From an uncultured Bacteroidales bacterium (lineage in GTDB: Bacteria > Bacteroidota > Bacteroidia > Bacteroidales > GWA2-32-17), in contig CAYSIN010000005.1 of the NCBI GenBank assembly GCA_964431135.1, positions 245 through 64,244 on the forward strand: a DNA stretch of 64,000 bases, read 5' to 3'. Of this stretch, positions 1,346 through 44,420 are shown piece after piece; within the stretch, counting starts at the first letter, position 1; each line of letters begins with the position of its first letter. Made by a program: the position numbers and the translations under genes. The notes under the pieces were generated by a model. That model did not search any database and was not told the DNA's origin. It saw nothing but the letters and a program-made list of their open reading frames with translations.

Positions 1346-1371
1346 AATACTTCTATATATTTTTAAAAAAA

Positions 1372-1467
1372 TTATATTTTACTTTATATCACTAAAATAA
1401 AATAAGAAAATTTATATTTTACTTTACGTTGCAAAAGTAAAATAAGAAAACTTATATTTTACTTTTA
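1372..1467. repeat. 40-bp tandem repeat (about 2.4 units) with internal inverted repeats, containing the fic promoter
   Basis: TTATATTTTACTTT at 1372, 1412 and 1452; AAAATAAGAAAA twice. Minus-strand -7 element TACTTTTG at 1439-1432. Confidence 0.75.
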
Positions 1468-7961: not shown

Positions 7962-8897
7962 TTACACTATAAAAGTAGAACTGATAGATTGATAGTTGTA
8001 CACCTTATTAATAATATCGGCAAACAAATCGGCAATGGAAAGAATTTTAATTTTGGGTGATGTCTGCTTTAACGGAATTGAATCGGTAAATACCAGTTCA
8101 GTGATAGGTGATTTTTCAATCCTTTCGTAAGCATTTCCCGATAATACGGGATGTGTGGCAACTACGCGGACACTTTTTGCTCCTTTGTTCATCATCATTT
8201 CGGAAGCAATAGTAATAGTGCCCGCCGTATCAACCATATCATCCAAAATAATGACGTTCTTATTTTTTACTTCTCCAATCATGGAAATATGTTCAACCTG
8301 ATTGGCTTCTTTTCGCAATTTATAGCAGATAACCATATCGCAACCCAGAAAACGGGAATATGCATTGGCACGTTTGGAACCGCCCATATCGGGTGCTGCC
8401 ACTACCAGATTATCAAGATTTAATTGTTTGATATAAGGGACAAAGACGGCAGACGCATAAACATGGTCAACGGGTATATTGAAAAAGCCCTGTATCTGGT
8501 CGGCATGTAAATCCATCGTCATAATGCGGCTAAAGCCCGCCGTAGTCAATAAGTCAGCAACCACCTTTGCGCCGATTGAAACGCGAGGTTTATCTTTTCT
8601 GTCCTGTCTTGCCCATCCAAAATATGGGATGACGGCAATTATCTTGTGAGCAGATGCCCGTTTAGCAGCATCAGCCATTAACAGCAATTCCATTAAGTTG
8701 TCCACAGGTGGATACGTACTTTGAATGAGAAAAACATTGCATCCTCGTACTGTTTCTTCATACGAAGGTTGAAATTCACCATCGCTAAAAAAGGTTACCG
8801 AAGATTTTCCCAATGTAGTTCCAAATTTATCCGCAATTTTTTCGCCAATATTTTTTGATGTTCTTCCAGCAAAAAATTTTATCGGTGCTCTATGCAT
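7962..8897 (-). CDS. prs: Ribose-phosphate pyrophosphokinase
   Basis: FSDGE, YFGWARQDRK, DLHADQIQGFF, PDMGGSKRA, DDMVDTAGT, THPVLSG. Confidence 0.96.
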   Translation of the reverse strand: MHRAPIKFFAGRTSKNIGEKIADKFGTTLGKSSVTFFSDGEFQPSYEETVRGCNVFLIQSTYPPVDNLMELLLMADAAKRASAHKIIAVIPYFGWARQDRKDKPRVSIGAKVVADLLTTAGFSRIMTMDLHADQIQGFFNIPVDHVYASAVFVPYIKQLNLDNLVVAAPDMGGSKRANAYSRFLGCDMVICYKLRKEANQVEHISMIGEVKNKNVIILDDMVDTAGTITIASEMMMNKGAKSVRVVATHPVLSGNAYERIEKSPITELVFTDSIPLKQTSPKIKILSIADLFADIINKVYNYQSISSTFIV

Positions 8898-8938
8898 AAA
8901 TTTTTTTTTAATTGCTCAAAATTAACCATTATAATAAT

Positions 8939-8967
8939 AAAAAAAACTGTCTTGCGACAGTTTTTTT
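8939..8967 (-). terminator. Rho-independent terminator after thx
   Basis: A8-CTGTC-TTGC-GACAG-T7, 4 bp after the thx stop codon. Confidence 0.75.
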
Positions 8968-8970
8968 ATA

Positions 8971-9471
8971 TTATTTTTTTGTTTTAGCAGGTGCTTTTTT
9001 AGTTGTCTTTTTTGCTTCAGCCGTAGAAGTTTTTTTCTCTTTGTCTTTTACAGGTTTCGAAACGCTACTTTTAGTGGAAGATTTTTTTTCTGACACTTTT
9101 GTTTTAGCAGTAGTTTTTTTTGCTTCTGTTTTTGCTTCTGTTTTTGTTTTTGTTTTCTTTTCTATGGCTTTTTCTTTTTTGGCTGGAGTTGTTTTGATTA
9201 CATCCTTTTCTTTGGTTGCTGTCTTTTTGACTGTTTTTGGCTTTGGTTCTTTTATTTTTTGAACAGTTTCATTTACAACTGCAACCACAGTGTTCGTTTC
9301 AACTTCCATACTTGGAATTACAACAGGTTGAATTTCCTGTTTAAGCGGTTTAATCTCTTTTTCTTTTTTAGTCGGAATAAATGATGTATTATTTTTTTTG
9401 TGTGGACGACGAACACCATACGTTCCCAAAATAATTTTTCCACGACGTGATTTTTTGTCTCCTTTTCCCAT
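8971..9471 (-). CDS. thx: 30S ribosomal protein THX (bTHX) with a long Lys/Thr/Ala-rich C-terminal tail
   Basis: N-terminus MGKGDKKSRRGKIILGTYGVRRP matches the THX signature; the remaining ~140 aa are low complexity. Confidence 0.75.
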   Translation of the reverse strand: MGKGDKKSRRGKIILGTYGVRRPHKKNNTSFIPTKKEKEIKPLKQEIQPVVIPSMEVETNTVVAVVNETVQKIKEPKPKTVKKTATKEKDVIKTTPAKKEKAIEKKTKTKTEAKTEAKKTTAKTKVSEKKSSTKSSVSKPVKDKEKKTSTAEAKKTTKKAPAKTKK

Positions 9472-9489
9472 AATGAACTTAATTTTAAA

Positions 9490-9924
9490 TTAATAAAAAT
9501 TTTTTAACTGAGCCGTTTCTATTTTTTCATTGTTTACAAAAACGTAAGGTATTTTAAAAGCCTGATTTAACACTAATATTACATTATTCATTGAATAACC
9601 GGGTTTACATGTTATTGTTACTTGCCTTGTAATATTATCGGTGAAGATTTTTGATACAGACATTTCAACAATACCTTTATATGCTTTAAAAACAGAAACG
9701 AACATGGCAGCATCTTCATCTTTGTTCAATCCTTTCACAAAAAACTGCATACTTTTTTGATTGCCTGTACTTACTATGATAGTATCGTTGGTGGTATAAA
9801 AAAACACCTCTACTTTACTAAAGTCAGGATTTTGTGCTAACGAAAGTACAGGAAATGCAAAAAATAAAAAACATGTTACTTGTTTGGAAAGAACTTTAAC
9901 AGATTCTGCCCAGCAGTTTAACAT
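9490..9924 (-). CDS. Hypothetical exported protein with a possible HMA/ferredoxin-like fold
   Basis: Signal-peptide-like segment ending SLAQ; FFVKGL...KGIVEMSV pattern; 2 bp from the upstream gene. Confidence 0.6.
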   Translation of the reverse strand: MLNCWAESVKVLSKQVTCFLFFAFPVLSLAQNPDFSKVEVFFYTTNDTIIVSTGNQKSMQFFVKGLNKDEDAAMFVSVFKAYKGIVEMSVSKIFTDNITRQVTITCKPGYSMNNVILVLNQAFKIPYVFVNNEKIETAQLKNFY

Positions 9925-9926
9925 GC

Positions 9927-10391
9927 TTATTTGCTGTTCTGTCCGCTAACATTCTTACTTGCGTTTGCTCTTTCCTTATGTTTTTCCCTGAGTTCTTTCA
10001 AGTAATTTTTCAATTGTTCCGACTGGTCAAGAGTAAAAGACTTATCGTTAATAATAATATGTTTTACACCGACCCCTTTCAGGAAATTTAAAAAGGTTGG
10101 TTCTTCTTTCGAAGCAAGTATAAGTTTAGATTTACGTGCTCCGTTTGATTCTGCTTCAGCCAGATAATCAAATTCTTTAACCCCCGATTGGCTTAAAGCA
10201 AGTTTTTTGAATGCTTCAAAATCGCTTGCCGTTTGCAATCCAGAAACTTTTAAGCCAGTTAGCAAAAAAGCATCGTTTACTTTTTCAAAAAGTTTGCCTG
10301 TGTTGTTTTTTATAACAAAGTCAACACTTTTTTGAGCGTAACTCCAACTAACCATGGTTAGTACAAAAACTAAAACAAATAATTTTTTCAT
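9927..10391 (-). CDS. Hypothetical exported protein, probable distant paralogue of 9490..9924
   Basis: MKKLFVLVFVLTMVSWSYAQ signal peptide; LKVSGL...SGVKEF pattern. Confidence 0.65.
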   Translation of the reverse strand: MKKLFVLVFVLTMVSWSYAQKSVDFVIKNNTGKLFEKVNDAFLLTGLKVSGLQTASDFEAFKKLALSQSGVKEFDYLAEAESNGARKSKLILASKEEPTFLNFLKGVGVKHIIINDKSFTLDQSEQLKNYLKELREKHKERANASKNVSGQNSK

Positions 10392-10494: not shown

Positions 10495-11397
10495 TTACTC
10501 CAACTTAGGCTTTGAACGATTGAACTTCACAATAAATAATAATTCATGTGAGCCCATGCTATGTTTATTTATATCCGTAAGGGTATAATCATAAGCATAT
10601 CCAAAGATAAAACGGTCTTTACAAATGCCTGCATTTACTACAACGGCATCGCTGGTACGATAAGATAATCCTATCCAGAATGCTTGCTTATAAATACCTT
10701 TAACGTTTATATCCCCTTGTGCAATGCCTGCTTCCACATAATTGGCAAGCAACGAAGGTTGAATAGAAAAATTATTATTGATATCAAACGTATAACCGCC
10801 TGTTAAAAAATAATGTCGTACCTGCTTGTTTTCTATAATATTATCGGTCATCATATCCACTTTTCTATTAAATAATTGATAAACAGATATACCGACATAG
10901 TAATGACTACTATAATAATAGGCACCAAAAGCAGCATCGGGAGTAATTAATTTTTCGCTGCCATACAGTATTACATTATCATCCTGCTCTTCGAGTTTCA
11001 GTAAACTTTTATTCAAATAAACCTGATACAACTGAGCCGATAATCCTAATGAAATTTTATCGCCCTTATTACCAATTTTAAAATGATAGGCATACGTGGC
11101 TTCAATGCCCAATTTAGACAAGGGACCTGTAGCATAATTAAAAATTTTACCTCCTAAACCTACGTTGTCGCCTGCCAGAAAATGTGCACTGATACTTTGC
11201 ATGGCTGGGGCATCGTCCATACCCGACCACCAACGTTTATAATTAAACGCCAACGGACTGTATGATGTTGTTCCCGTAACAGCAGGATTTATTAAATATG
11301 GATTTTCCATGTACTGGCTCACTGTTGGAATTTGCTGAGCCCGCACGGTCAGGTTAAACATTAAACCTGTCATTACTATTCCCAATATCTTTTTCAT
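10495..11397 (-). CDS. sprF: PorP/SprF-family T9SS outer-membrane beta-barrel
   Basis: SQYMENPYLINPAVTG start, PDAAFG, RHYFLTGGY, GYAYDY and GSHE motifs; 10 bp downstream of a type B CTD adhesin. Confidence 0.9.
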   Translation of the reverse strand: MKKILGIVMTGLMFNLTVRAQQIPTVSQYMENPYLINPAVTGTTSYSPLAFNYKRWWSGMDDAPAMQSISAHFLAGDNVGLGGKIFNYATGPLSKLGIEATYAYHFKIGNKGDKISLGLSAQLYQVYLNKSLLKLEEQDDNVILYGSEKLITPDAAFGAYYYSSHYYVGISVYQLFNRKVDMMTDNIIENKQVRHYFLTGGYTFDINNNFSIQPSLLANYVEAGIAQGDINVKGIYKQAFWIGLSYRTSDAVVVNAGICKDRFIFGYAYDYTLTDINKHSMGSHELLFIVKFNRSKPKLE

Positions 11398-11407: not shown

Positions 11408-14400
11408 TTATTTCATTAAAGTTACAGAACCCGTAAATGGCTTGCTGCCATCTTTTAAATCTATGACATAATAATATGTTGCCGATGGCAATTGCTTATC
11501 GTTCTTTGTTCCATCCCATGGCTTATCGTAGCCAGTTGATTCAAATACCTTTACTCCCCACTGGTCGTATATTAACACACTGCAATTAGGAAATGCCTGA
11601 ATATATTTAATATTCCAAACATCGTTTTTCCCATCTCCATTAGGTGTAAAAGCATTATAAATTTCTATATGTTTTCCTTCGCTTTCAACATTTACGGAAT
11701 CGGAAACAGTACATCCATTATCATCGGTAATAGTTACATAATACATACCCTGTGAAATATTGGATAAATCTTCCGTTTCGGTAGAATTAGACCATAAATA
11801 TGAATAAGGTTGTGTACCGCCAAATACCATAAGGTCAATTTTCCCATCCGAAAGCCCTTCAAACGAAACCGGTGTTACTATTGTAGATAAAGACAACGAA
11901 CCGGGTTGTCGAATAATGACAGAATCCGTATAATTTCCACATTTATCACTTACGGTATAATAATAAGTCCCTGCAGACAAGTGTGAAATAATGGAATCAG
12001 TGCTTGCATTGGACCAGTGATAAGAATACGGAAGAACGCCATTCGAAGGTATCAGTGTTATGCTTCCATTACTATTTCCGAAACACAATACATTTTCCTT
12101 TTGACTGGTAACATTTAATGGCGTTTTATAATTTATAGTAAACGGCACCACTGTGTTACCACAAAAATCAGAAACAGTAACGAAATAACTTCCTGTTGGC
12201 AAATGCTGTAATATACTATCAGTAGTGGTTCCAAAACTCCACGTGTAGGAATAAGGTTGAACACCATACATTGGAGTAATGATAGCCATACCTGTACTGT
12301 CAGAAATACAATCGGTAGGGCTGTTAAAGGAGATATAAGCCTGCAACGGTGTTTTGTAACCTATTTCTACAGAATCTATGGAACTGGCACACTGGTCGGT
12401 TACTGTAACAAAATTCCATCCCGGGCTTAAATCCAATGCAACGGAACCTGTACTGGCAGAATTAGACCATGTATATGAGTATGGTGGAAATCCATTTTGA
12501 ACATTTACCGTTGCCTTTCCATCCTGAGAGTTGGAGCATGAAGCATTTACAAAAAATGTAATGTGGGCAGACACAGGAGGAATAACATCAATCATAACAG
12601 AATCTATTAACGAAGTACAAGCATCCGTAACCGTAACATAATTCATTCCTGTCGTTAAATGAGTAGCCGTTGCCAATGTATCACCCGAAGTCCATAAATA
12701 GGTAAAGGGTGAAGAACCATCAAATACAGAAATCGTAGCACTTCCATTAGAAATAGAAGGACACGATGCAGGTGATGATGTAGTAATATCAATAGACATG
12801 GGACTTTGAACACCTGTATTCACAGATAAAATGACTTGACCACACGCATCACTCACGGTAACGGAATTTAATCCGGCTGGTAACTGCGTAGCCGTAGAAG
12901 TAGTTTCACCAGAAGTCCATATATATGAAAATGGTGCTACACCATCGGTTATAGAAACAACGGCTATGCCATTAGATATTCCTGTACAGGAAACGGGTGC
13001 AGAAAACGAAATGCTTGCCTGCATAGGCGGTAAACTGGTTATTTGAACAGAATCTATAATGGAGCCACAATAATCGGACACCGTTACATAGTGCCATCCT
13101 ACTGATAAATCGTTAGCAATGTCTGTGGTGCTGGTTGAATTTGACCAAACATACGAGTATGGTGTTATTCCACCCGATACCATTATCATAGCATAACCAT
13201 TGGTAGAAGTGCTGCATGTTGCTGGTTGAGAGGATGTAATGGATGCCTGCATGGATGGTAAACTGGTAGCAGATACTGAATCAATAATTGAACTGTTGCA
13301 CTGGTCGGTAACGGTAACATACGTTGTTCCTACACCGATTTGATTGTTATAAGAAGTCGTTACACCATTGGTCCATGTGTAGGTATAGGGAGCAAGACCA
13401 TCGGAAGCAGAAACATGAACTTCACCATTGATGGATGAAGAACAAAATAATACTAAGGTATGAGTATTGATGCTGGCAGAAAGTGGAACATAAGGATTAA
13501 CCTGAGCAGAGAATATGGATGAGCATAATGATGATGAAGTTACTGTAACGGTATAAGTTCCTGCAACTAAGTTAGAAATATCTTCCGAAGAGGCTAAATT
13601 TGACCACAAAAAAGAATAAGGCGTATCGCCATGTGAAATCGTAATGTCAATACTGCCTGTACCGGCAGCACATGTTTCATGGGTTACTGTACCGGTAATA
13701 ACCGGAAAATCATGAACATTGATGGGCTGGTTTGCTACATTAGTACATCCATTATTATCAGTGGCTGTAACAGAAAAAATTGTAGTAGTTGCTGGAATAA
13801 TAATTAATGGATTGGAAGAACTGCCTGTGTTCCATAGATAAGTTTGTCCTCCACTTGCTGTCAAGGTTACAGAATTTCCAGCACATATATCGGTAGAAGA
13901 AGCATTAATGGTAACTGTTGGTTTTGGATAAACAGTAATATTAGCCGTATCGGAATATCCTTTACATCCAGAAGAATTGGTAGCAATGGCATAATAAATA
14001 CCTGTCGAACCAGCAATATAATAAGGAGTGGTATATCCAGGTATTAACGAACCTCCGTTATACCATTCATAAGTACAATCGCTTCCATTGGTAGCAATAA
14101 TGGTTAAACTGTCGCCTTCACAAAAAGTATAACTGCCATGACTTGTTAAACTAATCATGGGCGAATCGACAGTTAAAATTATAGTATTAGTGGCAGTACA
14201 GTTTTTGCTATCCGTTACTGTAACACTGTATGTGCCCGGAGATAAAGAAGAAATATCTTCTGTGGTAGCACTGTTGCTCCAATTATAGGCAAACGGTGGT
14301 GTCCCATTATAAACAATTAAATCGATGCTTCCATCATTTCCAGGAATACAAGAGGGTTTCTGCATTAAATACGATAATGAAGGAGGATTATTGATGGGGA

Positions 14401-16696
14401 CAACCATGCCCGTTTTAATTGCGGAACAACTATTGTCATCGGTAACGGTGATGCTGTATGTTCCTGCTGTCAAATTAATTCTATCTTCCAGTGAATTTCC
14501 ATCGTTCCAGTTATAAGTATAAGGCATGGTTCCTCCACTGACGATGATATCTATACTCCCATCATTTCCGGGTACACAGGAAGGTGCTTCTATAATGGCA
14601 GAAATACTGGGAGCAAGCGGATTTACTACATTAAAGGTTTTTGCAATTGTACATCCATTACCATCGGTTATTGTAACTGTATAAGAATTCACATCCAATC
14701 CTGATAAATCTTCAGTAACCTGACCGTTTGACCATAAATAACTGTATGCAGGTGTACCCCCAGTCACTGTTATGTCAATGGCTCCATCATGGCTTGGAAC
14801 ACACGTTGGTGGAGTGACAATTCCCGATACATTTAATGCTGCCGGTGTATTAATTTTTACGGAATCATTCTTTGAGCAATTGTTAGCATCAAGAACTGTA
14901 ACAGAATACCATCCCGGTGCCAGTCCGATGATATCTTCTGTATTACTTCCATTACTCCAAGAATAGGAATAAGGAGATGCACCTCCTGTTACCGTTAAAT
15001 TAATAGAACCATCATTTACTCCAAAACAGGATGTGTTTTGCACGTTAAACACTAATGCCATGGCTGTACCTTCAGAGATGTAGGATGAATCGTTTTTTGC
15101 TGCACCCAGAGCGTCGGTTACCGTAACTTTGTACCAGCCTGCTTTTAACAGAGTAATGTCTTCACTGGTTGAAGTAAAACCACCTGGACCTGTCCACGCA
15201 TAGGTATATGGACCAGTACCATTGCCGGAAACGGTTAAATCTATACTTCCTGAAGAATCACCATAACAAACGTTAGGAATATTGACAAACGTCAAATTAA
15301 TTTTACCAAATTTTGCCACAAACATATCTCTGGTAGAAGGCGAAGGATTTGTGAGTGTTTTATTATTAATGTATAATGTTGCTGAATAAAAAGGACCCAC
15401 AAACAGATTGGCGTTATTGGCATTAATTTTACCATTTTCACAAAAATCGTTTCCTGTGCCCCATGCTTTGTTTACACCCAATACATTTCCATTTCTGTCC
15501 GTTTCAAGCATAAACGCATCAGTAGCACTATTTGTAAGGCTGAAAGAACTAAAAGAGATATTGCCTGTATAGGAACCGGTAAAAATAGCGTGGTCGGCAT
15601 TGGCGTATACGCCTGTTGCCTGGTCATCGCCACCAGAGCCATAACTGTTCACCCATGTTAGCGTACCGTCGTAACTGTAACATGCAGTAAAGATATCATT
15701 ACTGCCATGATTGACACAAGTTTTAGTTGAAACTTGGGTTGCTGTAGAATCAATAGTTAAAGAAGGACTGTCATAATAACCACTCAAATATTGAAAACTG
15801 GAATAATCAGTAAAATGACGTATTAAATAATCTTCACCGGTACCCTTAATACTTCTTACCCATTGAACATTACCACTCGTGTCTGTTCTAAACAACATCA
15901 TATCACGGGTAGAAGATGTACTGACAACAGTATCTACTTCCAGATAAAGACTGTCGGCATATAAACCACTGAAATAATAAGAAGTATTATCATAAGAAAC
16001 TGAACGAATATTATTGTTAGAATTATTTCCCTTGAATGTTTTTGCCCAAATTAAATTACCATTCGAATCAAATTTGGATATATAATTTTGTTGAATACCT
16101 GTATAGGGAGAAATAAAAGAAAGTATTCCACCATAAAAAGTAACCGAATTGGTATATTTACCAATTTGTATCACATTTTCGCTGGCATCAACGGTCAGGT
16201 TTCCACCAAACTGTTGGGTAACACCGTAAGCTGCTTTAATTGTCCACACCAACGAACCATCGGAAGTATTGTATTTGGCTAAAAAAACATCATTACCGCC
16301 GGAAGTTGCCAGCGTAGTTCCACCAAAATTGCAATCGTTACTTAAAAATTGACCACCTACATAAAACGTGTTTCCATTCTGACTTAATGCAATACCAGCG
16401 GCATTTTCAGCCTGTGACCCACCAATACCCTTTAGCCAAAGGAGTTGTCCTTGTCCATTGTATTTTGCTATGTAAATATCTTGACCTCCGACAGCAGTAA
16501 GAGAAAATGTATCCTGACTGATAGTATTGTTATAAATCCCAATAATATATAGATTTCCCGAAGCATCTTCTACCACAGAAACGGGGACGCTTTGTCCTGA
16601 GCCCGAAAGTTGACTTACCCACAATAAATCGTTATGCTGAGCATGCAACGTAAAAAATAATACAACCCCTAATACGGTTAATAATAAATTCTTCAT
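11408..16696 (-). CDS. SprB-like adhesin: N-terminal beta-propeller, SprB repeats, T9SS type B (gliding-motility) CTD
   Basis: DASGN/DSNGN propeller repeats, many GSIDLTVxGG...YSYxWSNG...TVTDxxGC repeats, C-terminal NAFTPNGDGKNDVW...IYDQWG...WDG...TYYY. Confidence 0.9.
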   Translation of the reverse strand: MKNLLLTVLGVVLFFTLHAQHNDLLWVSQLSGSGQSVPVSVVEDASGNLYIIGIYNNTISQDTFSLTAVGGQDIYIAKYNGQGQLLWLKGIGGSQAENAAGIALSQNGNTFYVGGQFLSNDCNFGGTTLATSGGNDVFLAKYNTSDGSLVWTIKAAYGVTQQFGGNLTVDASENVIQIGKYTNSVTFYGGILSFISPYTGIQQNYISKFDSNGNLIWAKTFKGNNSNNNIRSVSYDNTSYYFSGLYADSLYLEVDTVVSTSSTRDMMLFRTDTSGNVQWVRSIKGTGEDYLIRHFTDYSSFQYLSGYYDSPSLTIDSTATQVSTKTCVNHGSNDIFTACYSYDGTLTWVNSYGSGGDDQATGVYANADHAIFTGSYTGNISFSSFSLTNSATDAFMLETDRNGNVLGVNKAWGTGNDFCENGKINANNANLFVGPFYSATLYINNKTLTNPSPSTRDMFVAKFGKINLTFVNIPNVCYGDSSGSIDLTVSGNGTGPYTYAWTGPGGFTSTSEDITLLKAGWYKVTVTDALGAAKNDSSYISEGTAMALVFNVQNTSCFGVNDGSINLTVTGGASPYSYSWSNGSNTEDIIGLAPGWYSVTVLDANNCSKNDSVKINTPAALNVSGIVTPPTCVPSHDGAIDITVTGGTPAYSYLWSNGQVTEDLSGLDVNSYTVTITDGNGCTIAKTFNVVNPLAPSISAIIEAPSCVPGNDGSIDIIVSGGTMPYTYNWNDGNSLEDRINLTAGTYSITVTDDNSCSAIKTGMVVPINNPPSLSYLMQKPSCIPGNDGSIDLIVYNGTPPFAYNWSNSATTEDISSLSPGTYSVTVTDSKNCTATNTIILTVDSPMISLTSHGSYTFCEGDSLTIIATNGSDCTYEWYNGGSLIPGYTTPYYIAGSTGIYYAIATNSSGCKGYSDTANITVYPKPTVTINASSTDICAGNSVTLTASGGQTYLWNTGSSSNPLIIIPATTTIFSVTATDNNGCTNVANQPINVHDFPVITGTVTHETCAAGTGSIDITISHGDTPYSFLWSNLASSEDISNLVAGTYTVTVTSSSLCSSIFSAQVNPYVPLSASINTHTLVLFCSSSINGEVHVSASDGLAPYTYTWTNGVTTSYNNQIGVGTTYVTVTDQCNSSIIDSVSATSLPSMQASITSSQPATCSTSTNGYAMIMVSGGITPYSYVWSNSTSTTDIANDLSVGWHYVTVSDYCGSIIDSVQITSLPPMQASISFSAPVSCTGISNGIAVVSITDGVAPFSYIWTSGETTSTATQLPAGLNSVTVSDACGQVILSVNTGVQSPMSIDITTSSPASCPSISNGSATISVFDGSSPFTYLWTSGDTLATATHLTTGMNYVTVTDACTSLIDSVMIDVIPPVSAHITFFVNASCSNSQDGKATVNVQNGFPPYSYTWSNSASTGSVALDLSPGWNFVTVTDQCASSIDSVEIGYKTPLQAYISFNSPTDCISDSTGMAIITPMYGVQPYSYTWSFGTTTDSILQHLPTGSYFVTVSDFCGNTVVPFTINYKTPLNVTSQKENVLCFGNSNGSITLIPSNGVLPYSYHWSNASTDSIISHLSAGTYYYTVSDKCGNYTDSVIIRQPGSLSLSTIVTPVSFEGLSDGKIDLMVFGGTQPYSYLWSNSTETEDLSNISQGMYYVTITDDNGCTVSDSVNVESEGKHIEIYNAFTPNGDGKNDVWNIKYIQAFPNCSVLIYDQWGVKVFESTGYDKPWDGTKNDKQLPSATYYYVIDLKDGSKPFTGSVTLMK

Positions 16697-16722
16697 AATT
16701 AAAAAAATTTTATGAATAATAT

Positions 16723-16854
16723 TTAACTTAAAGATGGTCCATAGTCACCATCGTCAGTAGTGTAAGCACCACCTTGAGATTCTTGAACTGGAAGTTCCAT
16801 GAGTGCAGGTGCTTCCCACACTTGTTTTTGATTAGTTTCATTTATTGATTCCAT
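16723..16854 (-). CDS. 43-aa peptide, lasso/paeninodin-like RiPP precursor candidate (not in ORF track)
   Basis: MESINETNQKQVWEAPALMELPVQESQGGAYTTDDGDYGPSLS. WxxPxLxxLxV leader motif, more GC-rich than its flanks, consensus promoter 20 bp upstream. Confidence 0.65.
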   Translation of the reverse strand: MESINETNQKQVWEAPALMELPVQESQGGAYTTDDGDYGPSLS

Positions 16855-16873
16855 AAAGCATTATATTTTGGAA

Positions 16874-16905
16874 CAAAGGTAATACATTTTTATTCATAAT
16901 TCAAA
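16874..16905 (-). promoter_or_regulatory. Bacteroidota primary sigma promoter for the peptide-adhesin-sprF unit
   Basis: TTTG (16905-16902), 20-bp spacer, TACCTTTG (16881-16874). Confidence 0.65.
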
Positions 16906-16962
16906 AAAAATTAAATTGTTTTTTACCATAAAAAGATTCGAACTACATTACAAAATAAAATT

Positions 16963-17082
16963 TGGAAATATGGAAATTTGGAAATGTAGGAATGTGAGAA
17001 TGTGGAAATGTGGAAATGTGGAAATGTGAGAATGTGGAAATGTGAGAATGTGGAAATGTGAGAATGTAGGAATGTGGGAATA
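16963..17082. repeat. Octamer minisatellite, 15 units
   Basis: Units TGGAAATG, TGAGAATG, TAGGAATG and TGGGAATA in exact 8-bp register. Confidence 0.95.
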
Positions 17083-17114
17083 AGGTCCTGTCTAAGTCTA
17101 ATAACGGGATAATT

Positions 17115-17164
17115 TATACCAGACCGCAAACAAAAGAATAAAAATGTGCATCCTCGTTGCAAAC
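17115..17164 (+). mobile_element. MITE-like dispersed repeat, 5' half (copy A)
   Basis: TATACCAGACCGCAAACAAAAGAATAAAAATGTGCATCCTCGTTGCAAAC aligns with 19922-19971; the 3' half is missing. Confidence 0.7.
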
Positions 17165-17196: not shown

Positions 17197-19761
17197 CTAT
17201 TTACAATATTGTGTAAGTGCTTCGTTTGCTTTTCTATATCCATAACTTAATGCTTTTTGATATGCGTCACACGCATCTGTTATGTTCTTATTTTCACGAT
17301 ACAGTTCAGCCAAAAAGTACCATGTATCGCCACTTTGCGGAAAAATAGAAATAGCCTTTTTATAATATTTTTCAGCCATTTTATAGTTCTTCTTTTGATG
17401 CCAAATCCAGCCAAGATTGATATATGAATTGACAAGTGAACTGTCCAGCAAAAGAGATTTTTCAAATTCTTTTATCGCCCTGTCATAATTTTTAAGTTCG
17501 GTATGATACCATGCCATATTTTGCCATACAAGTGCACTGTTGGGATGTAAAGAAATATTCATATTAAAATCGTCAAAGGCTTTAGTATAATCTTTCAGCG
17601 AAAACCATGCGTGTGCTCTGTTATTTAATGCCAGTTGATTATTCATATCCATGCTGAGTACTTGTGAAAAATCGTCAATGGCGTCTTTAAAATTTTGTAT
17701 GGAAGCCCATAACCAGCCTCTATTCATATATGCTTGAATTAATCTCGGATTTATGGATAATGCTTTGTTATAATCACTTAACGCTGCTGTTTTATCACCA
17801 AGCATAAATTCTGCATAACCACGATTGTTGTATGCATAAGCATTTGATGGATTGCTCGCTAGCGAACGATTAAAATATTGAATGGCATAACGAAACTTTC
17901 CTTGCAATACTAAAACCCAACCAAAATTGTTTAACGCCGAAGCATTATATTTATCCAGTTCTATAGATTTTTGAAAATCGGCATTTGCCAATGAGAGCAT
18001 ATTTTTATTTAGAAAAAATGTTCCTCTATTATTATAAGCCATAGATAATAGTGAATCGGTTTTTATAGATAGATTGTAATAATATAGTGCTAAACTGTCG
18101 TTTCCGATTTTACGGTATGATTCACCAAGGGATGTATAAACCACTGCGTTGTATATATTATGCTTATCGTATTTAAGAACATTTAAAAAATCCTGTATGG
18201 CTTCTTGATTGTTACCAAGCATGTCATACGCATAAGCACGATTAAAATATACCGTTGGTTCAAGCGAATCGAACTTTATAGATTGAGAATAACAATACAT
18301 GGCACTGTCTATTTTTTGTTGCTCAATATATACTGTAGCAAGGTTCAGATAAGCAAAGGGAACGGCAGGATTTTTATTAATGACATCCGTAAACAGTGTT
18401 TTTGTGTTTTTCCATACCATACAACGGATATAGGTAGCCGATGATAGTATAATCAATAGAACAAAAAAAGCAGGGGTGGCATATTTTTTTAGAAAAGGCT
18501 TAAAGTAGGCTGTTACTAATTCACCCAAAGCAACAAATAATCCAAAATATGCAAGATACGAATATCGGTCGGCTACGACTAAACGTCCTTCAATGGGAAT
18601 AATATGCAATACTATTGAAATATTAAATATAAAAAAGAACCATCCGAAAAAGAGTAAGGGTCGAACTTTTTTTCTTTTAACGATAAGCCATATTGAAATT
18701 ATCAGTACAGCCGCTAAAATAATAAGTGTTACATGGTAATTTATTGGTAAATTACCAGTTGTTTCATGCAAAGGATAAAGATGAACCGCATTAAGTGAAA
18801 AAGGGAATATACATTTGGAAAGATAAAACCAGAGAGCATATCCGGCAAGCAAAAACCTTTCGGGTATGGAAAAAGCATTTTGAGAAACATCTGCATCATG
18901 CCATAAATGAGTTCTAAATTTAATTATTTGATATAGCGTATAAACTAAAATTATAAGAGCAAGAGTTATAATAGTAATTATAATTGTTTTTTTACTGACT
19001 CTGTTTTTAACTTTTTTATTTCTGAAAAATATATATACAATGAATAGTGTTATAGTTAAAATAAGAAGATATTTTAAATTGAACGATAAAAATATGTATA
19101 AAAACATAATAATTTTTTCGGTTAACGTCCATAGCGAAAGTTTTCTGTTATAGATATAATCAAACAAAATCAATGAAAATGGGATAATCAATCCTTGTAT
19201 TTTTGATAACGAAGCAAGAAAAATAAACAGAAGCGTCAAAATAATATATCCGACTTTTTTTTGATGCAGGTATTTGATATAAATATGAAAACTGATGAAT
19301 GAAAAGAATGAAAACAACAAATCCTTAAATTCTGAAATCCATGCGACCGACTCTACACGCATGGGATGAAGAGCAAATAAGAGTGTTACTAATATTATTA
19401 CTATTGTGTTTTTAGAAAGTTTACGCATAAGCATATAGACCAGTATAATATTAAACAAGTGAAACAGAAGATTTATCCAGTGATAGGGTACGGGATTTTC
19501 ACCCCAAAAATTATATATTAATGAAAAAATTGTCAGCGTTAATGAAGTATAGCGTTCATGCTGAAGGTTATACTTTATGTTCTGTATATTAAGATTTTTG
19601 ACATGCTGATTTTGTGTTATTTGAGCATTATCATCCCAATGGATAAATTCATAATGTGTAACCTGAATGTACGATAGTAATGTCGCCAGTATAATTATAA
19701 GAAGACAAATTCTTTCTTTATTAAAAAAACTTACCGATGATTTTATATTTTTATTCTCCAC
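17197..19761 (-). CDS. TMTC-like GT-C membrane glycosyltransferase with C-terminal TPR array
   Basis: FIHWDDNAQI, FALHPMRVESVAWISE, VADRYSYLA, multiple TM helices, then about 10 TPR repeats (AYNNRG). Confidence 0.8.
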   Translation of the reverse strand: MENKNIKSSVSFFNKERICLLIIILATLLSYIQVTHYEFIHWDDNAQITQNQHVKNLNIQNIKYNLQHERYTSLTLTIFSLIYNFWGENPVPYHWINLLFHLFNIILVYMLMRKLSKNTIVIILVTLLFALHPMRVESVAWISEFKDLLFSFFSFISFHIYIKYLHQKKVGYIILTLLFIFLASLSKIQGLIIPFSLILFDYIYNRKLSLWTLTEKIIMFLYIFLSFNLKYLLILTITLFIVYIFFRNKKVKNRVSKKTIIITIITLALIILVYTLYQIIKFRTHLWHDADVSQNAFSIPERFLLAGYALWFYLSKCIFPFSLNAVHLYPLHETTGNLPINYHVTLIILAAVLIISIWLIVKRKKVRPLLFFGWFFFIFNISIVLHIIPIEGRLVVADRYSYLAYFGLFVALGELVTAYFKPFLKKYATPAFFVLLIILSSATYIRCMVWKNTKTLFTDVINKNPAVPFAYLNLATVYIEQQKIDSAMYCYSQSIKFDSLEPTVYFNRAYAYDMLGNNQEAIQDFLNVLKYDKHNIYNAVVYTSLGESYRKIGNDSLALYYYNLSIKTDSLLSMAYNNRGTFFLNKNMLSLANADFQKSIELDKYNASALNNFGWVLVLQGKFRYAIQYFNRSLASNPSNAYAYNNRGYAEFMLGDKTAALSDYNKALSINPRLIQAYMNRGWLWASIQNFKDAIDDFSQVLSMDMNNQLALNNRAHAWFSLKDYTKAFDDFNMNISLHPNSALVWQNMAWYHTELKNYDRAIKEFEKSLLLDSSLVNSYINLGWIWHQKKNYKMAEKYYKKAISIFPQSGDTWYFLAELYRENKNITDACDAYQKALSYGYRKANEALTQYCK

Positions 19762-19921: not shown

Positions 19922-20025
19922 AATACCAAACCGCTAACAAAAGAATGAAAATGTGCATTCTCGTTGCAAACGAGGACAAGATAGCGAAGCGAATTGTTTT
20001 AATGAACTTGTTAACAATCGGTATA
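19922..20025 (+). mobile_element. MITE-like dispersed repeat, full copy B
   Basis: Imperfect terminal inverted repeats ATACCAAACCGCTAACAA ... TTGTTAACAATCGGTATA; internal hairpin TTCTCGTT-GCA-AACGAGGA. Confidence 0.75.
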
Positions 20026-24861: not shown

Positions 24862-25428
24862 ATGGAATCAGAAAATGAAAACCAACTGCTTCAACTTCAA
24901 AAGCAAGTTGATGAACTGAAAAACAAAGTGAATAAACTGGAAAAGTCAAGAAAAGACCAATTGTCCATTGCCATTGTATCGGGCGATATGGACAGACTAT
25001 TGGCTACCATGATAATTTCATTGGCAGCCGCAGCCAGCGATACCAAAGTTAAACTTTTCTTTTCGTTTTGGGCATTATCGGCTCTTAGAGATCCGAAAAA
25101 GAAAGCACAGGGAAAAGACTTTATGTCTAAAATGTTTGGATTTATGTTGCCTAAAGGAAAAAATAAATTAAAGTTATCCAAATTGAACATGGCAGGTATG
25201 GGACCTGTTATGATTAAAGGTCTGATGAAGAAACAGCATGTACTTTCGTTGGACGAAATGTTTAAACAAGCTGCTGAATTGGGTATTGAAATTTCTGTTT
25301 GTGAAATGTCCATGAATCTCATGGGATTTAAAAAAGAAGAAATGATAGATTACCCGGGCTTGAAATTTGTAGGTGCAGCCACTTTTGTTGCCGATGCTGC
25401 CGAAAGTGGAATTCAATTATTTATATAA
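24862..25428 (+). CDS. DsrE2/DsrE-like sulfur-relay protein
   Basis: LSIAIVSGDMDR, FFSFWAL, NMAGMG, VCEMSMNLMG, GAATF. Confidence 0.88.
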   Translation: MESENENQLLQLQKQVDELKNKVNKLEKSRKDQLSIAIVSGDMDRLLATMIISLAAAASDTKVKLFFSFWALSALRDPKKKAQGKDFMSKMFGFMLPKGKNKLKLSKLNMAGMGPVMIKGLMKKQHVLSLDEMFKQAAELGIEISVCEMSMNLMGFKKEEMIDYPGLKFVGAATFVADAAESGIQLFI

Positions 25429-25446
25429 TCATTAATTTTTTATTTT

Positions 25447-25698
25447 ATGGAAACAGCAGAATTATTACAATTAAAAGTCAACCATGTAGTTGATGCTCGG
25501 GGGACATCTTGTCCTGGACCTCTTTTGGCTGCCAAAAAAGCCATCGGAGAAATAGAATCGGGTGAAATACTGGAAATACTTTCGTCTGACGAAGGTACTA
25601 AACACGACATTCCAAAATGGTGTGAAAAAATGGAACATACATTTCTTGGAATAATCGAAGAAAACAGTTATGCCCGCTTATTTTTGAAAAAAGCATAA
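25447..25698 (+). CDS. tusA: TusA-family sulfur carrier
   Basis: VDARGTSCPGPLL, SSDEGTKHDIPKWC. Confidence 0.9.
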   Translation: METAELLQLKVNHVVDARGTSCPGPLLAAKKAIGEIESGEILEILSSDEGTKHDIPKWCEKMEHTFLGIIEENSYARLFLKKA

Positions 25699-25703
25699 TT
25701 TTT

Positions 25704-25736
25704 ATAGAGCAGTTATTTTTAACTGCTCTATTTTTT
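25704..25736 (+). terminator. Intra-cluster terminator or stabilising hairpin after tusA
   Basis: ATAGAGCAGTTA-TTTT-TAACTGCTCTAT followed by a T-tract. Confidence 0.7.
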
Positions 25737-25788
25737 ATTTAAAAAACAATGCCATTGTCTTAAAGATGACAAATAGAATAAGATAAAT

Positions 25789-26214
25789 ATGGAAAATATA
25801 TCATTCAAACCAAAAATTCTTGTCTTTTCAACCGATAAGATATCTGACCCCGGCATAGACCAGGCAGGGCTGCGAAAAATACATTATTCGCCGTCGGTAT
25901 ATGTAATAAGTTTGCCTTGTTCATCAGGCATAAAGCCTCGCTGGATAATGCATGCTTTTGAAAAAGGATTTGACGGTGTTTTTATTGCTGCCGATGGTCA
26001 TGAATGCTCCTATAATACAAAATGTGCCGAACATACCAATAAAATTATTTCCGATTCGCAGGCGCTTATGCAAGAAAAAAAAATAAACCCAAAACGAATT
26101 CGTATGTCAGCCATATGTTCCGTGTGTGCAGAACCATTTGCAAACCACATCGAAACATTCAGCAAAATATTATTGGAACTGGGAAGTATTTCTGAAGAAA
26201 AATTAAAAGCATAA
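25789..26214 (+). CDS. mvhD: MvhD-like (hydrogenase delta) [2Fe-2S] subunit
   Basis: LPCSSGIKPRWI.HAF.KGFDGVFI, ECSY, RIRMSAICSVCAEPF. Confidence 0.8.
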   Translation: MENISFKPKILVFSTDKISDPGIDQAGLRKIHYSPSVYVISLPCSSGIKPRWIMHAFEKGFDGVFIAADGHECSYNTKCAEHTNKIISDSQALMQEKKINPKRIRMSAICSVCAEPFANHIETFSKILLELGSISEEKLKA

Positions 26215-26238
26215 CCAAATTTTTAAAAGATACATATA

Positions 26239-28983
26239 ATGCCTAAAGAAGATAAAAATTTTGATGTACTTGTAATTGGCGGTGGTATTGCTGGACAAGA
26301 AACAGCATTAAACCTTGCCGACATGAATCATAAGGTTTTACTGGTAGAAAAAGGACATTCTATTGGTGGCACAATGATACAATTAAGTAAAGTATTTCCT
26401 ACACTTGATTGTGCTGCCTGCATTACTACACCCAAAATGTCTGAAACAGCACGTCATCCAAACATTACCCTGATGCTAGACAGCAAAATAGAAAAAATCA
26501 ATAAAAATGATACGGACTTTCAGGTAACAGTTCATCAACAAGCCCGTTATATTATTCCCGAAGCCTGTACAGGATGCGGAGAATGCGAAGTTGTTTGTCC
26601 CGAAGTGCGACCCGATGAATATAATACACAACTGGCAGGAACCAAAGTAGCCCATATTCCCTTTGCACTTGCTAATCCACGTATTTCTGCCATTGAACGA
26701 AACAATACTTCGGCACCCTGTATCAATGAATGTCCTGGCGGCGTAAAGGCTTATGGTTATATTTCGCTGGTAAGAAATAAACAGTACGAAGAAGCCATGA
26801 AACTTCATTTGGAAGATATTCCACTGCCCGGAAGTTTGGGACGTGCTTGCTATGCACCCTGTCAGGTTGCCTGTACTCGCAGTTCACTCGATTCATCCGT
26901 AGATATAAGACGAATAAAACGTTTCTTTGCTGAAGAATATTATCAAAAACATGCGGAACCCGAAAAAATTGAAATACGACAGTCGTTAACTCAAAAAATT
27001 GCTGTTGTGGGTTCAGGACCTGCAGGATTAACAGCCGCTTATCATTTAGCATTAAAAGGATATAAAGTAAAAATTTTTGAAGCATCCCCCGTTTTGGGTG
27101 GTATGTTGATACTTACTTTACCCGAGTATCGTTTACCTAAAGCCGTTGTTGAAAGAGATGTAAAAAATATTCTTTCACTTGGTGTTGAATATGAAACCAA
27201 TAAGAAAATAGATAACTTAAAACAACTGAAAGAAGAAGGATTTGACAGTATATTTGTTTCTGTTGGCACTCATGAAACGCCTAAATTAAGAATAGAAGGT
27301 GCTGAGTTGGAAAATATTGTTTCGTGTCTCGATTTTTTACGTGAAGCGAACATAGGCGAGCGTAAAAATTTAAAAGGGAAAAAAGTAATGGTTATTGGTG
27401 GTGGCAATACGGCCATGGATGCTTCACGAACAGCCCTGCGTTTGGGAGCAGAAAAAGTTACCGTGGTATATCGTCGTAGCCGTGAAGAAATGCCTTGCTT
27501 TAAACCAGAAATAGAGGAAGCAGAAGAAGAAGGTGTAGAAATATTGGTTTTACGCAATCCTGTTAAATTTATGGGAAAAAACGGAAAGATAACCAATGTT
27601 CAACTGATAAAAATGAGATTAGGAGAACCCGATAAGGACGGAAGAAGAAAACCTGAACCCATAGAAGGTTCTGAATACATAGAAGAAGTAGATTTTGTAA
27701 TTGAAGCCATTGGATTGCAACCTTCAACTTCTCTATTCGCTAATACGCTTGAATTGAATAAAAATGGAACTATAAAAGTAAATAATTTTACTTTACAAAC
27801 ATCGGTTGATTACATATTTGCCGGTGGCGATTCAGTTACAGGTGCAACAACTATTATTGCAGCAGCCGGACAAGGCAAAAAGGCTGCCTTTTATATAGAC
27901 AAATTTTTGAAGGGACTGAAACTTGAAGAATATGAATCGGGCGACAAGTTACCAGCGGTAGATAAAAATACAGTTTTAAACAAACCAAATTTACCTTCTA
28001 TACCCAAAGTAAAACAAAAAATGAGACCTGCCAAAGAGCGTATTCATGACTTTAATGATGTAGAATTGACTTTTACCGAAGAAGAAGTATTACAAAGCGC
28101 CAAACGTTGCCTCGATTGCAGCAATTGTCGTGAATGTCATCAATGTGTAAATGCGTGCCCGGCGTATGCTATAGATTTTTCTCAAAAACATAAAACAGAA
28201 TCTATAACAGCCAAATCGGTCGTTGTTTCTACAGGGTATAAACTTTTTCCACCACAAGGAAAACCTGAATATGGTTATGGAATATATCCCAATGTAATTG
28301 ATTCTTTACAAATGGATAGACTGATTGCACCTACCAGACCTTTTAACAACGTTCTAAGACCGGGCGATGGTAAAACACCCGACAATATTGCTTATATATT
28401 ATGTACAGGCTCACGCGATTCGGCAATTGAAAATAAAAGTTGCAGCGTTGAATGCTCCAACAATCCTATTTGTTCACAGATTTGCTGCATGTATTCCATT
28501 AAACAGGCTCAACTTTTAATGGGTGCTTTACCCATGGCAGATATCACCATTTATTATATAGATATACGTGCTTTTGGTAAAGGATATGAAGAATTTTATC
28601 AACAAGCAAAATCTATGGGAGTAAATTTTATAAAAGGGAAAGTTGCTAAAATTAGAGAAAAAGATGACCACAGTGGTAATCTTATTTTACGATATGAGGA
28701 TGTTACAACGGGTAAACTGAAAGAATCGGAACACGACGTAGTTGTACTTTCTGTAGGTGTTTTGCCAAACAAAGAAGTACCCAATATGTTTGGCAATGTA
28801 AAACTTGAACTGGATACATTTAATTTTGTTAAACAGGTGGATGAATTAGTAAACCCTGCCAAAACGAGCATTGAAGGTGTATTTGTTGCCGGTGCTGCCT
28901 CTGGTCCAAAAGATATTCCCGATTCCATATTATCTGCTGGATGTGCCTCTACCGAAGTAGCGGGCTATATCAATAAATTGTAA
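26239..28983 (+). CDS. HdrA/QmoA-like flavoprotein with an inserted GltD/NfnB-type NAD(P)H module (HdrL-like)
   Basis: GGGIAG, FPTLDCAACITTPK, CTGCGECEVVCP; inserted PCINECPGG, GRACYAPCQVAC, GSGPAG, GGGNTAMD, YRRSREEM; then CTGSRD, CSQICCMYS, GPKDIPDS. Confidence 0.88.
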   Translation: MPKEDKNFDVLVIGGGIAGQETALNLADMNHKVLLVEKGHSIGGTMIQLSKVFPTLDCAACITTPKMSETARHPNITLMLDSKIEKINKNDTDFQVTVHQQARYIIPEACTGCGECEVVCPEVRPDEYNTQLAGTKVAHIPFALANPRISAIERNNTSAPCINECPGGVKAYGYISLVRNKQYEEAMKLHLEDIPLPGSLGRACYAPCQVACTRSSLDSSVDIRRIKRFFAEEYYQKHAEPEKIEIRQSLTQKIAVVGSGPAGLTAAYHLALKGYKVKIFEASPVLGGMLILTLPEYRLPKAVVERDVKNILSLGVEYETNKKIDNLKQLKEEGFDSIFVSVGTHETPKLRIEGAELENIVSCLDFLREANIGERKNLKGKKVMVIGGGNTAMDASRTALRLGAEKVTVVYRRSREEMPCFKPEIEEAEEEGVEILVLRNPVKFMGKNGKITNVQLIKMRLGEPDKDGRRKPEPIEGSEYIEEVDFVIEAIGLQPSTSLFANTLELNKNGTIKVNNFTLQTSVDYIFAGGDSVTGATTIIAAAGQGKKAAFYIDKFLKGLKLEEYESGDKLPAVDKNTVLNKPNLPSIPKVKQKMRPAKERIHDFNDVELTFTEEEVLQSAKRCLDCSNCRECHQCVNACPAYAIDFSQKHKTESITAKSVVVSTGYKLFPPQGKPEYGYGIYPNVIDSLQMDRLIAPTRPFNNVLRPGDGKTPDNIAYILCTGSRDSAIENKSCSVECSNNPICSQICCMYSIKQAQLLMGALPMADITIYYIDIRAFGKGYEEFYQQAKSMGVNFIKGKVAKIREKDDHSGNLILRYEDVTTGKLKESEHDVVVLSVGVLPNKEVPNMFGNVKLELDTFNFVKQVDELVNPAKTSIEGVFVAGAASGPKDIPDSILSAGCASTEVAGYINKL

Positions 28984-29004
28984 TTAAAATTTAATACTAC
29001 ATAC

Positions 29005-31203: not shown

Positions 31204-31208
31204 GGAAC

Positions 31209-32378
31209 ATGGCTAAAGTAAATCCCGATTTTGTAAATGAAATTAAAAAATTTGGAGCAAGTGATTTTGATGCATGCTTCAATTGCGGAAACTGTACAGC
31301 AATATGCTCGCTTACCGATGCAGATAATTCGTTCCCAAGAAAAATAATCCGTTATACTACGCTTGGACTTGAAAGTGAAATACAATCTTCGTTAGAGCCA
31401 TGGCTGTGCTATTATTGCGGCGATTGCTCCACATCGTGCCCGCGACAGGCAGACCCAGGCAACCTGATGATGTCCGTTAGAAGATACCTGACCGCTAACT
31501 ACGACTGGACAGGCATTTCAAAAAAACTATATACTTCAAAAGTTTGGGAAATAGGATTAATCGGATTAATTTCGTTAGCAGTTCTTACGATGTTTATCCT
31601 TTATCATGGTGATATGACTACAGAACTCACCAGCGAAGGAGGCGTAAAACTGAATACTTTTGCTCCGTGGCAAATCATCGAAAAAATTGACTGGGGACTG
31701 GCTGCATTCCTTTCTTTCTTCCTGCTTTCCAATATTGTGAATATGTACTTTAAAATAGTCGGAACGAAGAAAAAAGTACCCTTTAAAATGTATTTTATAC
31801 AATTGTATAAATTAATTCTCCATTTTTTTACACAAAAGAACTTTGCAAAATGCAATACAGAAAAAATATCTTTTGCACAAAAAATTAAAAATGGCAGTTA
31901 TACATATTGGATAGTGCACTTTTTGCTGATGTCGAGTTACGTGCTGTTGTTTATTATGATAGTTGGCTTTTTGGGATGGTTTCAGACCGAAGCCATTCAT
32001 CCGTGGTATTATCCGCAACGGTTGTTTGGTTATTATTCGACCATAGGACTGCTGTTTGGAACTGTATATTTCTCTATATTGCGATATAAGAAAACATCGG
32101 AAAAGTCTAAAAAAACACATTATACCGACTGGACGTTTCTTATTCTCTTATTCCTCACCGCTTCTACGGGGATACTACTGCATTTCTTCAGAATAAGCGG
32201 AATGCCTTATGCAACGTACTACACGTATGTCATACATTTAATGGTTTTATTCCCGATGCTGATGATTGAAGTGCCGTTTTCCAAATGGTCGCATCTGGCA
32301 TACAGACCTTTTGCCATCTATTTTTCAAGCCTTGTAAAGGCAACTGCCGAAAAAAGTAATGTAAATACCAAAAAATAA
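31209..32378 (+). CDS. QmoC-like subunit (HdrC-type 2x[4Fe-4S] domain plus membrane cytochrome b domain)
   Basis: CFNCGNCTAIC, CYYCGDCSTSCP, about 6 TM helices with His (IVHF, LLHF, VIHL) and KWSHLAYRP. Confidence 0.82.
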   Translation: MAKVNPDFVNEIKKFGASDFDACFNCGNCTAICSLTDADNSFPRKIIRYTTLGLESEIQSSLEPWLCYYCGDCSTSCPRQADPGNLMMSVRRYLTANYDWTGISKKLYTSKVWEIGLIGLISLAVLTMFILYHGDMTTELTSEGGVKLNTFAPWQIIEKIDWGLAAFLSFFLLSNIVNMYFKIVGTKKKVPFKMYFIQLYKLILHFFTQKNFAKCNTEKISFAQKIKNGSYTYWIVHFLLMSSYVLLFIMIVGFLGWFQTEAIHPWYYPQRLFGYYSTIGLLFGTVYFSILRYKKTSEKSKKTHYTDWTFLILLFLTASTGILLHFFRISGMPYATYYTYVIHLMVLFPMLMIEVPFSKWSHLAYRPFAIYFSSLVKATAEKSNVNTKK

Positions 32379-32387
32379 TTTAACCTT

Positions 32388-40103: not shown

Positions 40104-40118
40104 AATAATATTGTTTTA

Positions 40119-44408: not shown

Positions 44409-44420
44409 ATACCATATTTT

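Follow-up and report, generated by a model that had tools for sequence, protein, structure and literature searches.

A conserved small gene with a leader half resembling lasso precursors heads a SprB-repeat adhesin operon in uncultured Bacteroidales

What is a 43-codon open reading frame (ORF), half of which resembles the leader of a lasso peptide precursor, doing at the head of an adhesin operon? The ORF occupies positions 16723..16854 (stop codon included) on the minus strand of the window, by which we mean the whole 64-kb stretch of DNA analysed here, and its translation in the ORF list is MESINETNQKQVWEAPALMELPVQESQGGAYTTDDGDYGPSLS. An AT-rich spacer of 26 nt (16697..16722, minus strand) separates its stop codon from the ATG of a 1762-aa adhesin (11408..16696, minus strand). 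According to Pfam, this adhesin contains SprB repeats in 13 stretches (1.1e-112) and a CHU_C (type-B) T9SS C-terminal domain (1.3e-26), and it also has a signal peptide. The gene for a PorP/SprF outer-membrane partner (10495..11397, minus strand; Pfam PorP_SprF, 1.8e-68) comes next. SprB repeats, CHU_C and PorP/SprF together identify a type-B T9SS adhesin operon of the SprB/SprF kind, like those of gliding Bacteroidota, and gldLMN-type T9SS genes are likewise found in the window. Unlike those operons, this one includes a small leader-like cistron; to our knowledge, no such cistron has been described for SprB/SprF operons. The first-pass annotation, which was made from the DNA letters alone, had placed the 43-aa ORF upstream of the adhesin, had called it the first gene of the adhesin operon and had described it as a lasso or paeninodin-like precursor, offering as readings an orphan precursor matured in trans, a new RiPP class modified by the neighbouring GT-C/TPR enzyme or a regulatory leader peptide for the adhesin. 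The position and the gene order are confirmed here. The proposed class agrees with the leader half of the peptide and disagrees with its core and with its genomic context.

The peptide gene is preceded by a candidate promoter of the Bacteroidetes type, TTTG (-33) N20 TACCTTTG (-7), found by pattern match at 16874..16905 on the minus strand (full sequence TTTGAATTATGAATAAAAATGTATTACCTTTG). The motif ends 19 nt before the peptide ATG, in agreement with the first-pass annotation. Taken alone, the pattern is not rarer than chance, with 9 matches against 6.8 expected in this AT-rich 64-kb window. It carries weight because of its conservation: five homologous loci share the TAnnTTTG box without change, at a distance of 11-19 nt from the start codon of the peptide. 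A promoter function for this element would be in keeping with the published Bacteroidetes consensus. The spacer between the peptide and adhesin genes, which measures about 17-31 nt in relatives, has neither a TAnnTTTG box nor a conserved hairpin in the window or in the homologous loci. A single weak terminator-like hairpin was found inside the 3' end of the ORF and is not conserved in homologues. With the same layout in relatives and the promoter box before the peptide gene only, the peptide gene opens the transcription unit of the adhesin, and the two genes are probably co-transcribed. Public assemblies also call the ORF as a gene, always under the name 'hypothetical protein'.

Several repeats lie in the DNA upstream of this unit. 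A tandem array in which an 8-nt unit (AAATGTGG/AATGTGAG) recurs 15.5 times (16958..17081, no strand assigned; TRF and repeat finder) is located 55-180 nt upstream of the -33 box, and its link to the operon is positional only. The array may provide a series of binding sites or act as a control region prone to slippage. A Logan assembly of the same strain breaks inside it. The closest relative (locus L032) has a different array, of seven copies of a 7-nt unit, at the same place and another, of 9.8 copies of a 21-nt unit, further up. The DNA further upstream of the operon has diverged beyond recognition. In the window, a 49-nt direct repeat whose two copies (17116..17164 and 19923..19971) are 92% identical and are the only ones present brackets the gene upstream of the operon, which encodes a protein with transmembrane (TM) and TPR regions. 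This arrangement suggests either that a cassette was inserted or moved, or that the repeats are matching regulatory or terminator elements.

Evidence that the ORF is a gene comes from its relatives. Among 1.84 billion representative proteins, searched exhaustively with phmmer, only two were true relatives of the peptide, both exactly 43 aa long, and scans of contigs from genomes and metagenomes with the peptide alignment gave no match. Further homologues were retrieved with the adhesin N-terminus as the query, by way of species-representative genomes, JGI metagenomes and cluster membership. Nine distinct peptide variants of 43-45 aa resulted, all from related uncultured Bacteroidales, and every one is encoded directly upstream of an orthologous adhesin (N-terminal identity of the adhesins, 63-73%). 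One of the variants recurs on 23 contigs or more, drawn from many samples, and its arrangement is the same on each. Contigs that carry the gene include DAOOWN010000006.1, JAKPPY010000294.1 (GCA_029557355.1) and ERZ27257500 k141_110002. Extra copies of the peptide were looked for in the window and in all retrieved loci, and none were found there. More distant homologues of the adhesin (25-34% identity) are not accompanied by a peptide gene, which indicates that the peptide arose together with this adhesin lineage. A 588-aa protein (P0003) with repeats of the form QKQ[TS]GGATVTDDKMYEPLYKEAK matched the peptide with an E value of 2e-4; the match looks like low-complexity repeat similarity (GGA.T.DD) rather than homology.

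Between variants, the frame, the length, the start and the stop position are kept at 42-65% protein identity. Changes at third codon positions are in excess among pairs of peptide genes, and dN/dS is 0.11-0.33 in seven of the eight computable pairs, with dS near or past saturation. A conserved RNA element was considered as the source of this conservation and rejected, since RNAalifold gave only a weak consensus (-8.4 kcal/mol, with a covariation penalty) and no conserved fold, and an Rfam search of the region gave no match. Purifying selection together with the absence of a conserved RNA fold identifies the protein sequence as the conserved signal. The ORF is therefore a real, selected small gene, and it is presumably translated. 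Conservation in relatives, which the first-pass annotation had named as a check on its proposal, has thus been found, including the fixed place before the adhesin.

The pattern of conservation divides the peptide into two halves. Fourteen columns are invariant in an alignment of eight sequences (M1, K10, W13, E14, P16, E20, L21, S26, T32, D34, D35, G36, P40 and S43), and position 18 is L, I or V in all of them. The leader-like half, K10 to S26, follows the pattern KxxWExPx[LIV]xELx[VI]xxS (codons at 16777..16827, minus strand). The acidic core-like half, G28 to S43, follows x-[GN]-[GA]-[YF]-T-x-D-D-G-[DS]-x-[GA]-P-[ST]-[LV]-S (codons at 16726..16773, minus strand). Variable residues in the same eight sequences are 1-9 and 27-29 and, within the core-like half, positions 28, 29, 33, 37 and 38. 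Conservation is lowest around the putative cleavage site (positions 27-29). The peptide is strongly acidic and has no cysteine and no signal peptide. An AlphaFold2 model from a shallow alignment of three members contains no secondary structure (mean pLDDT 65, pTM 0.16), which may weakly favour a docking or precursor peptide over a folded mini-protein. Two specific peptide types were considered and rejected: a double-glycine (peptidase C39) leader, because the GG is not conserved (LNG in the type represented by locus L004) and the E-L spacing does not fit, and a PQQ-like Glu-Tyr crosslink, because E25 is not conserved and Y31 is replaced by F in one member.

The leader-like half accounts for the resemblance to lasso precursors. 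A 2026 study of RREs of the paeninodin-like kind gives the RRE-binding motif as [Y/W]xxPx[L/V/I/F/A], and the crystal structure of PbaB1 with PbaA has contacts at K-18, W-15, P-12 and L-10 and along the strand E-9/V-8/L-7 (PMC13381572). The spacing of K10, W13, P16, [LIV]18 and L21 equals that of K-18, W-15, P-12, L-10 and L-7 in PbaA, and the conserved positions in the leader half of the family coincide with the published RRE contact positions (PMC13381572). The family thus has the RRE-binding leader motif at the right spacing, and S26 falls 13 residues after the Trp, where lasso leaders carry a Thr.

This resemblance was quantified against a reference set of 26 Firmicutes lasso precursors, each represented by its leader and 10 core residues (Table 3 of PMC7533575); the set consists largely of precursors predicted in silico. 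With hhalign, family residues 12-33 align to the profile of these 26 leaders with a probability of 90% and a P value of 1.8e-6. The alignment pairs Trp with Trp, Pro with Pro, EL with EL, S26 with the invariant Thr and G29 with the predicted Gly1. Column-shuffled controls (n=200) scored 8.0±2.0 with a maximum of 14.2, against 27.0 for the real alignment, and the resemblance is thus not an effect of composition. A lasso-leader HMM placed family members on top of about 3,400 decoy ORFs, and in this one-sided test no more than three or four of the eight members scored clearly above the best decoy. The invariant S26 stands at position -2, and Ser is chemically close to Thr. The penultimate leader residue has been reported as Thr, or rarely Ile or Val; Ser is not among the reported residues (PMC10368454). 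The similarity to lasso leaders exceeds chance; it spans 22 residues and could be convergent.

Lasso precursors normally adjoin the genes of their enzymes. Pfam scans of all 50 window ORFs of at least 120 aa and of the free small ORFs gave no Asn-synthase-like cyclase (C), PqqD/RRE (B1), transglutaminase-like peptidase (B2) or HPr-kinase-like gene in the 64-kb window, which agrees with the first-pass annotation, and no radical-SAM or ATP-grasp gene was found in the window. Within 10 kb on either side of the pair in the relatives (loci L004, L022-L031 and L036), there is likewise no cyclase, RRE, peptidase, kinase, radical-SAM or ATP-grasp gene; the L004-type species is represented by many contigs. 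A hidden RRE was considered in two unannotated proteins of 154 aa and 144 aa encoded downstream of sprF and was rejected because both have signal peptides and no homologue in the other loci.

The neighbouring genes also bear on an earlier proposal, namely that a GT-C/TPR enzyme encoded next to the peptide modifies it. The upstream neighbour in the window is an 854-aa protein (17197..19761, same strand) with a multi-pass membrane half of ~470 aa and a TPR-rich C-terminal half. The membrane half has no Pfam match and no GT-C or other glycosyltransferase signature, leaving the GT-C label unconfirmed. In relatives, wherever the upstream neighbour is readable, it is instead a SpoIIE-type PP2C phosphatase, which is directly adjacent to the peptide gene or, in L032, set apart from it, with a 114-aa ORF and some 0.85 kb of repeat-rich sequence in between. 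Since the TPR neighbour is not conserved in relatives, modification of the peptide by it is ruled out, and the proposal was abandoned.

Downstream of the pair, conservation ends as well. In the window, the pair of peptide and adhesin genes has the TM+TPR gene upstream and PorP/SprF downstream. The context in other species consists of LpxD and the SpoIIE-type PP2C upstream and a BBP2-like barrel downstream, and in the L004-type species this barrel takes the place of PorP/SprF, which is not conserved there. The peptide-adhesin pair is the sole constant element across these two genomic contexts. Whatever the role of the peptide, selection or promoter dependence keeps its gene with the adhesin, and, because the adhesin is the only conserved neighbour, the arrangement points to an adhesin-related role.

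Other features of these loci deserve mention in their own right. In the L004-type species (L004 and L022-L031), the pair is bracketed by a SiaA/B/C-like partner-switch set that is absent from the window. The set comprises the SpoIIE-type PP2C upstream and, on the other strand downstream, SiaC (PF09345) and a DUF6272 protein (8726..9952, 16703..17083 and 17109..17681 in L022 coordinates). Modules of the SiaA/B/C type control aggregation in Pseudomonas. The window itself contains a T9SS core block (39210..45410, minus strand) that encodes GldN, GldM, GldL, an FGE-sulfatase-type (GldK-like) protein and a second PorP/SprF, so that the organism has the full gliding/T9SS machinery near the adhesin operon. 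A further block (24862..32846) with DsrE-like, TusA, FlpD (MvhD-like) and rubrerythrin genes and large pyridine-nucleotide-disulphide/Fe-S oxidoreductases resembles an electron-bifurcating module of the heterodisulfide-reductase type, which fits an anaerobic lifestyle. The window lies at one end of an ENA contig of 86 kb. At its left end (209..3003), a type I restriction-modification HsdM gene stands with a Fic-family gene, and Logan contigs of the same strain break there. Beyond 62600, a DDE transposase gene runs off the right end; it can be seen in locus L019 (13033..14739).

The explanation that we place first, tentatively and at somewhat less than an even chance, is that the gene encodes an RRE-dockable, precursor-like peptide, expressed together with the adhesin, on which a partner acts in trans by maturing or binding it. 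The peptide would be unstructured, acidic and signal-less, would be built like a RiPP precursor and would be produced whenever the adhesin promoter fires. Its K10-S26 half would serve as a lasso-type WxxPxL leader and dock as a beta-strand on a PqqD-like RRE, and modification or presentation would concern the conserved, Thr/Asp-rich C-terminal half, from G/A30 to S43. The partner protein would be encoded elsewhere in the genome and would act in trans. RRE binding, cleavage or modification, and the functional tie to the adhesin are all putative steps of this scheme.

A less probable reading, and still a quite possible one, is that the peptide has no RiPP link at all and is an adhesin-linked small protein or a cis-acting leader peptide, its WxxPxL resemblance being convergent. 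What tunes the expression, export or assembly of the adhesin would then be either the act of translating the first cistron or the peptide as such, for example as a nascent-chain sensor or a small cytoplasmic adaptor. That only the peptide and adhesin genes stay together in two genomic contexts speaks for such a role, as do their one shared promoter, the short distance of about 17-31 nt between them, the lack of the peptide beside distant adhesin homologues and the lack of maturation genes in the window and in the flanks of relatives. The linkage may, however, reflect nothing but the dependence of the adhesin on the promoter upstream of the peptide gene.

Known upstream leader or ribosome-arrest peptides that control downstream genes, such as TnaC, SecM and SpeFL, offer a comparison. 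Like them, the peptide gene is short and conserved and stands first on an operon mRNA, close to the gene that would be regulated and in the same layout in relatives, and its product has conserved Trp, Asp and Pro residues. By our own reasoning, its conserved stretch of ~34 residues is roughly as long as the ribosomal exit tunnel. Unlike them, it is coupled to no conserved RNA switch, Rho site or hairpin, and no conserved attenuator or terminator lies between the peptide and adhesin genes. The residue after S43 and the position of the stop codon vary, which argues against a stall at the stop codon. In a further difference from these leader peptides, both halves of the peptide are conserved and follow the RRE contact pattern. 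A reading confined to the adhesin leaves the spacing of the K/W/P/L/L/S residues, which matches the RRE contacts at a P value of about 1e-6, unexplained.

It is rather improbable that the peptide is the precursor of a different RiPP, RRE-dependent or RRE-independent, whose enzymes act in trans. Candidates would be a linear phosphorylated or glycosylated peptide, a graspetide-like Thr-Asp ester or a radical-SAM product. The leader half fits the general [Y/W]xxPx[L/V/I/F/A] motif, which also occurs in linear polyphosphorylated peptides (LPPs), and the peptide resembles the LPP precursor LppA in having an RRE-binding [Y/W]xxPx[V/L] leader on a short, uncyclised precursor, so that its product could be linear (PMC13381572). 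For a linear product, variation at the putative cut site would be less of an obstacle, and the conserved core is rich in Thr, Ser, Tyr and Asp. LPP leaders, however, have Tyr and an extended YxxPxVLxHQxIxFETxxS consensus, and their precursors vary at the C-terminus (PMC13381572), whereas the C-terminus of this peptide is conserved. LPP genes adjoin genes for an SpI-type peptidase, an RRE, an HprK-like kinase and a transporter (PMC13381572), none of which was seen here. Nor do the examined flanks contain ATP-grasp or radical-SAM genes, and the core has no known motif of these classes.

Still more improbable is a canonical paeninodin-type lasso precursor whose B1/B2/C (and kinase) cluster lies elsewhere in the genome. 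Such a precursor would be cleaved after Q27, a macrolactam would join residue 28 to D34 or D35, and the C-terminal Ser would be phosphorylated. The comparison is with the paeninodin-like precursors of Bacillota, for example PbaA/PadeA and the predicted LasA of Butyrivibrio, Lachnospira and Clostridium beijerinckii. The likeness consists in a length of about 40-50 aa without a signal peptide, in the K, W, P, L/I/V and L residues at -18, -15, -12, -10 and -7, in the hydroxyl residue 13 after the Trp, in a Gly-rich junction with acidic residues 7-8 further on, and in a Ser at or near the C-terminus. Bacteroidetes are, moreover, named among the sources of lasso clusters that have been underexplored (PMC7533575, citing Tietz et al. 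2017). The unlikeness begins with the host, a member of the Bacteroidales, and with the place of the gene, which probably belongs to the transcription unit of a T9SS adhesin and has no B1, B2, C or kinase gene in any flank examined. It extends to the Ser at -2, which stands in place of Thr, Ile or Val (PMC10368454).

The unlikeness continues in the core half. In the register set by W-15, core residue 1 is residue 28, which is G, N, S, L, T or E among the members; position 29 is G or N, and position 30 is A or G. The family thus has no conserved small N-terminal core residue. Counted from residue 28, the invariant D34 and D35 are core residues 7 and 8; counted from residue 29, they are core residues 6 and 7. 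An acidic acceptor within core positions 7-9 is therefore present, and yet no single register combines a conserved residue 1 with an acceptor at positions 7-9 in all members. After D35, the tail reads GDYGPSLS in the window and GSAAPSVS(Q/A/Y) or GDQAP(S/T)LS in most members, so that most lack the bulky plug residues that would hold a threaded fold. S43 closes the peptide in four variants out of nine; the other five have a Q, A or Y after it. No HPr-kinase-like gene for a tailoring kinase was found in the flanks examined. The first-pass annotation had pointed to Ser at -2, Gly1, Asp7/Asp8 and a terminal Ser; all four hold for the peptide in the window, whereas Gly1 and the terminal Ser are not family-wide.

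Searches with models point in the same direction. The window peptide matched nothing in NCBIfam and Pfam at E values up to 10, four further members gave no match to the curated lasso precursor models of NCBIfam, and the family profile matched no PDB chain, lasso leader chains included. On present evidence, the peptide should not be filed as a lasso peptide.

That the ORF is functionless and stands by chance in the 5' leader of the mRNA for the adhesin is hardly credible: the family is very small, confined to close relatives and 'hypothetical protein' in every source, and the promoter pattern alone is no rarer than chance, but frame, length, start and stop are kept at 42-65% protein identity, dN/dS is 0.1-0.3 at saturated dS, 14 columns are invariant in eight sequences and the flanking non-coding DNA has diverged beyond recognition.

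The peptide family is so far unannotated under either a RiPP-related or an adhesin-linked reading. Translation-level regulation in Bacteroidota is poorly known, and even as nothing more than a cis-acting leader the peptide would offer a rare case of a conserved upstream ORF there. Should the peptide bind an RRE, lasso-type leader recognition would extend to Bacteroidales of anaerobic digesters and would operate there outside recognisable biosynthetic clusters; cluster-centred mining with antiSMASH or RODEO is blind to such orphan precursors. The furthest-reaching interpretation, which we regard as somewhat doubtful, is that a lasso-type RRE-docking leader was recruited as the first cistron of a gliding-type T9SS adhesin operon, either for a new class of RiPP made in trans or for reuse outside RiPP synthesis. 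In the latter case, RRE-like recognition would serve, for example, the regulation of surface adhesion. If either is true, RiPP-style leader recognition would for the first time be tied to the T9SS adhesins of Bacteroidota, and the fixed pairing of the peptide with a SprB-like adhesin would provide a testable entry to peptide-dependent control of adhesion or gliding.
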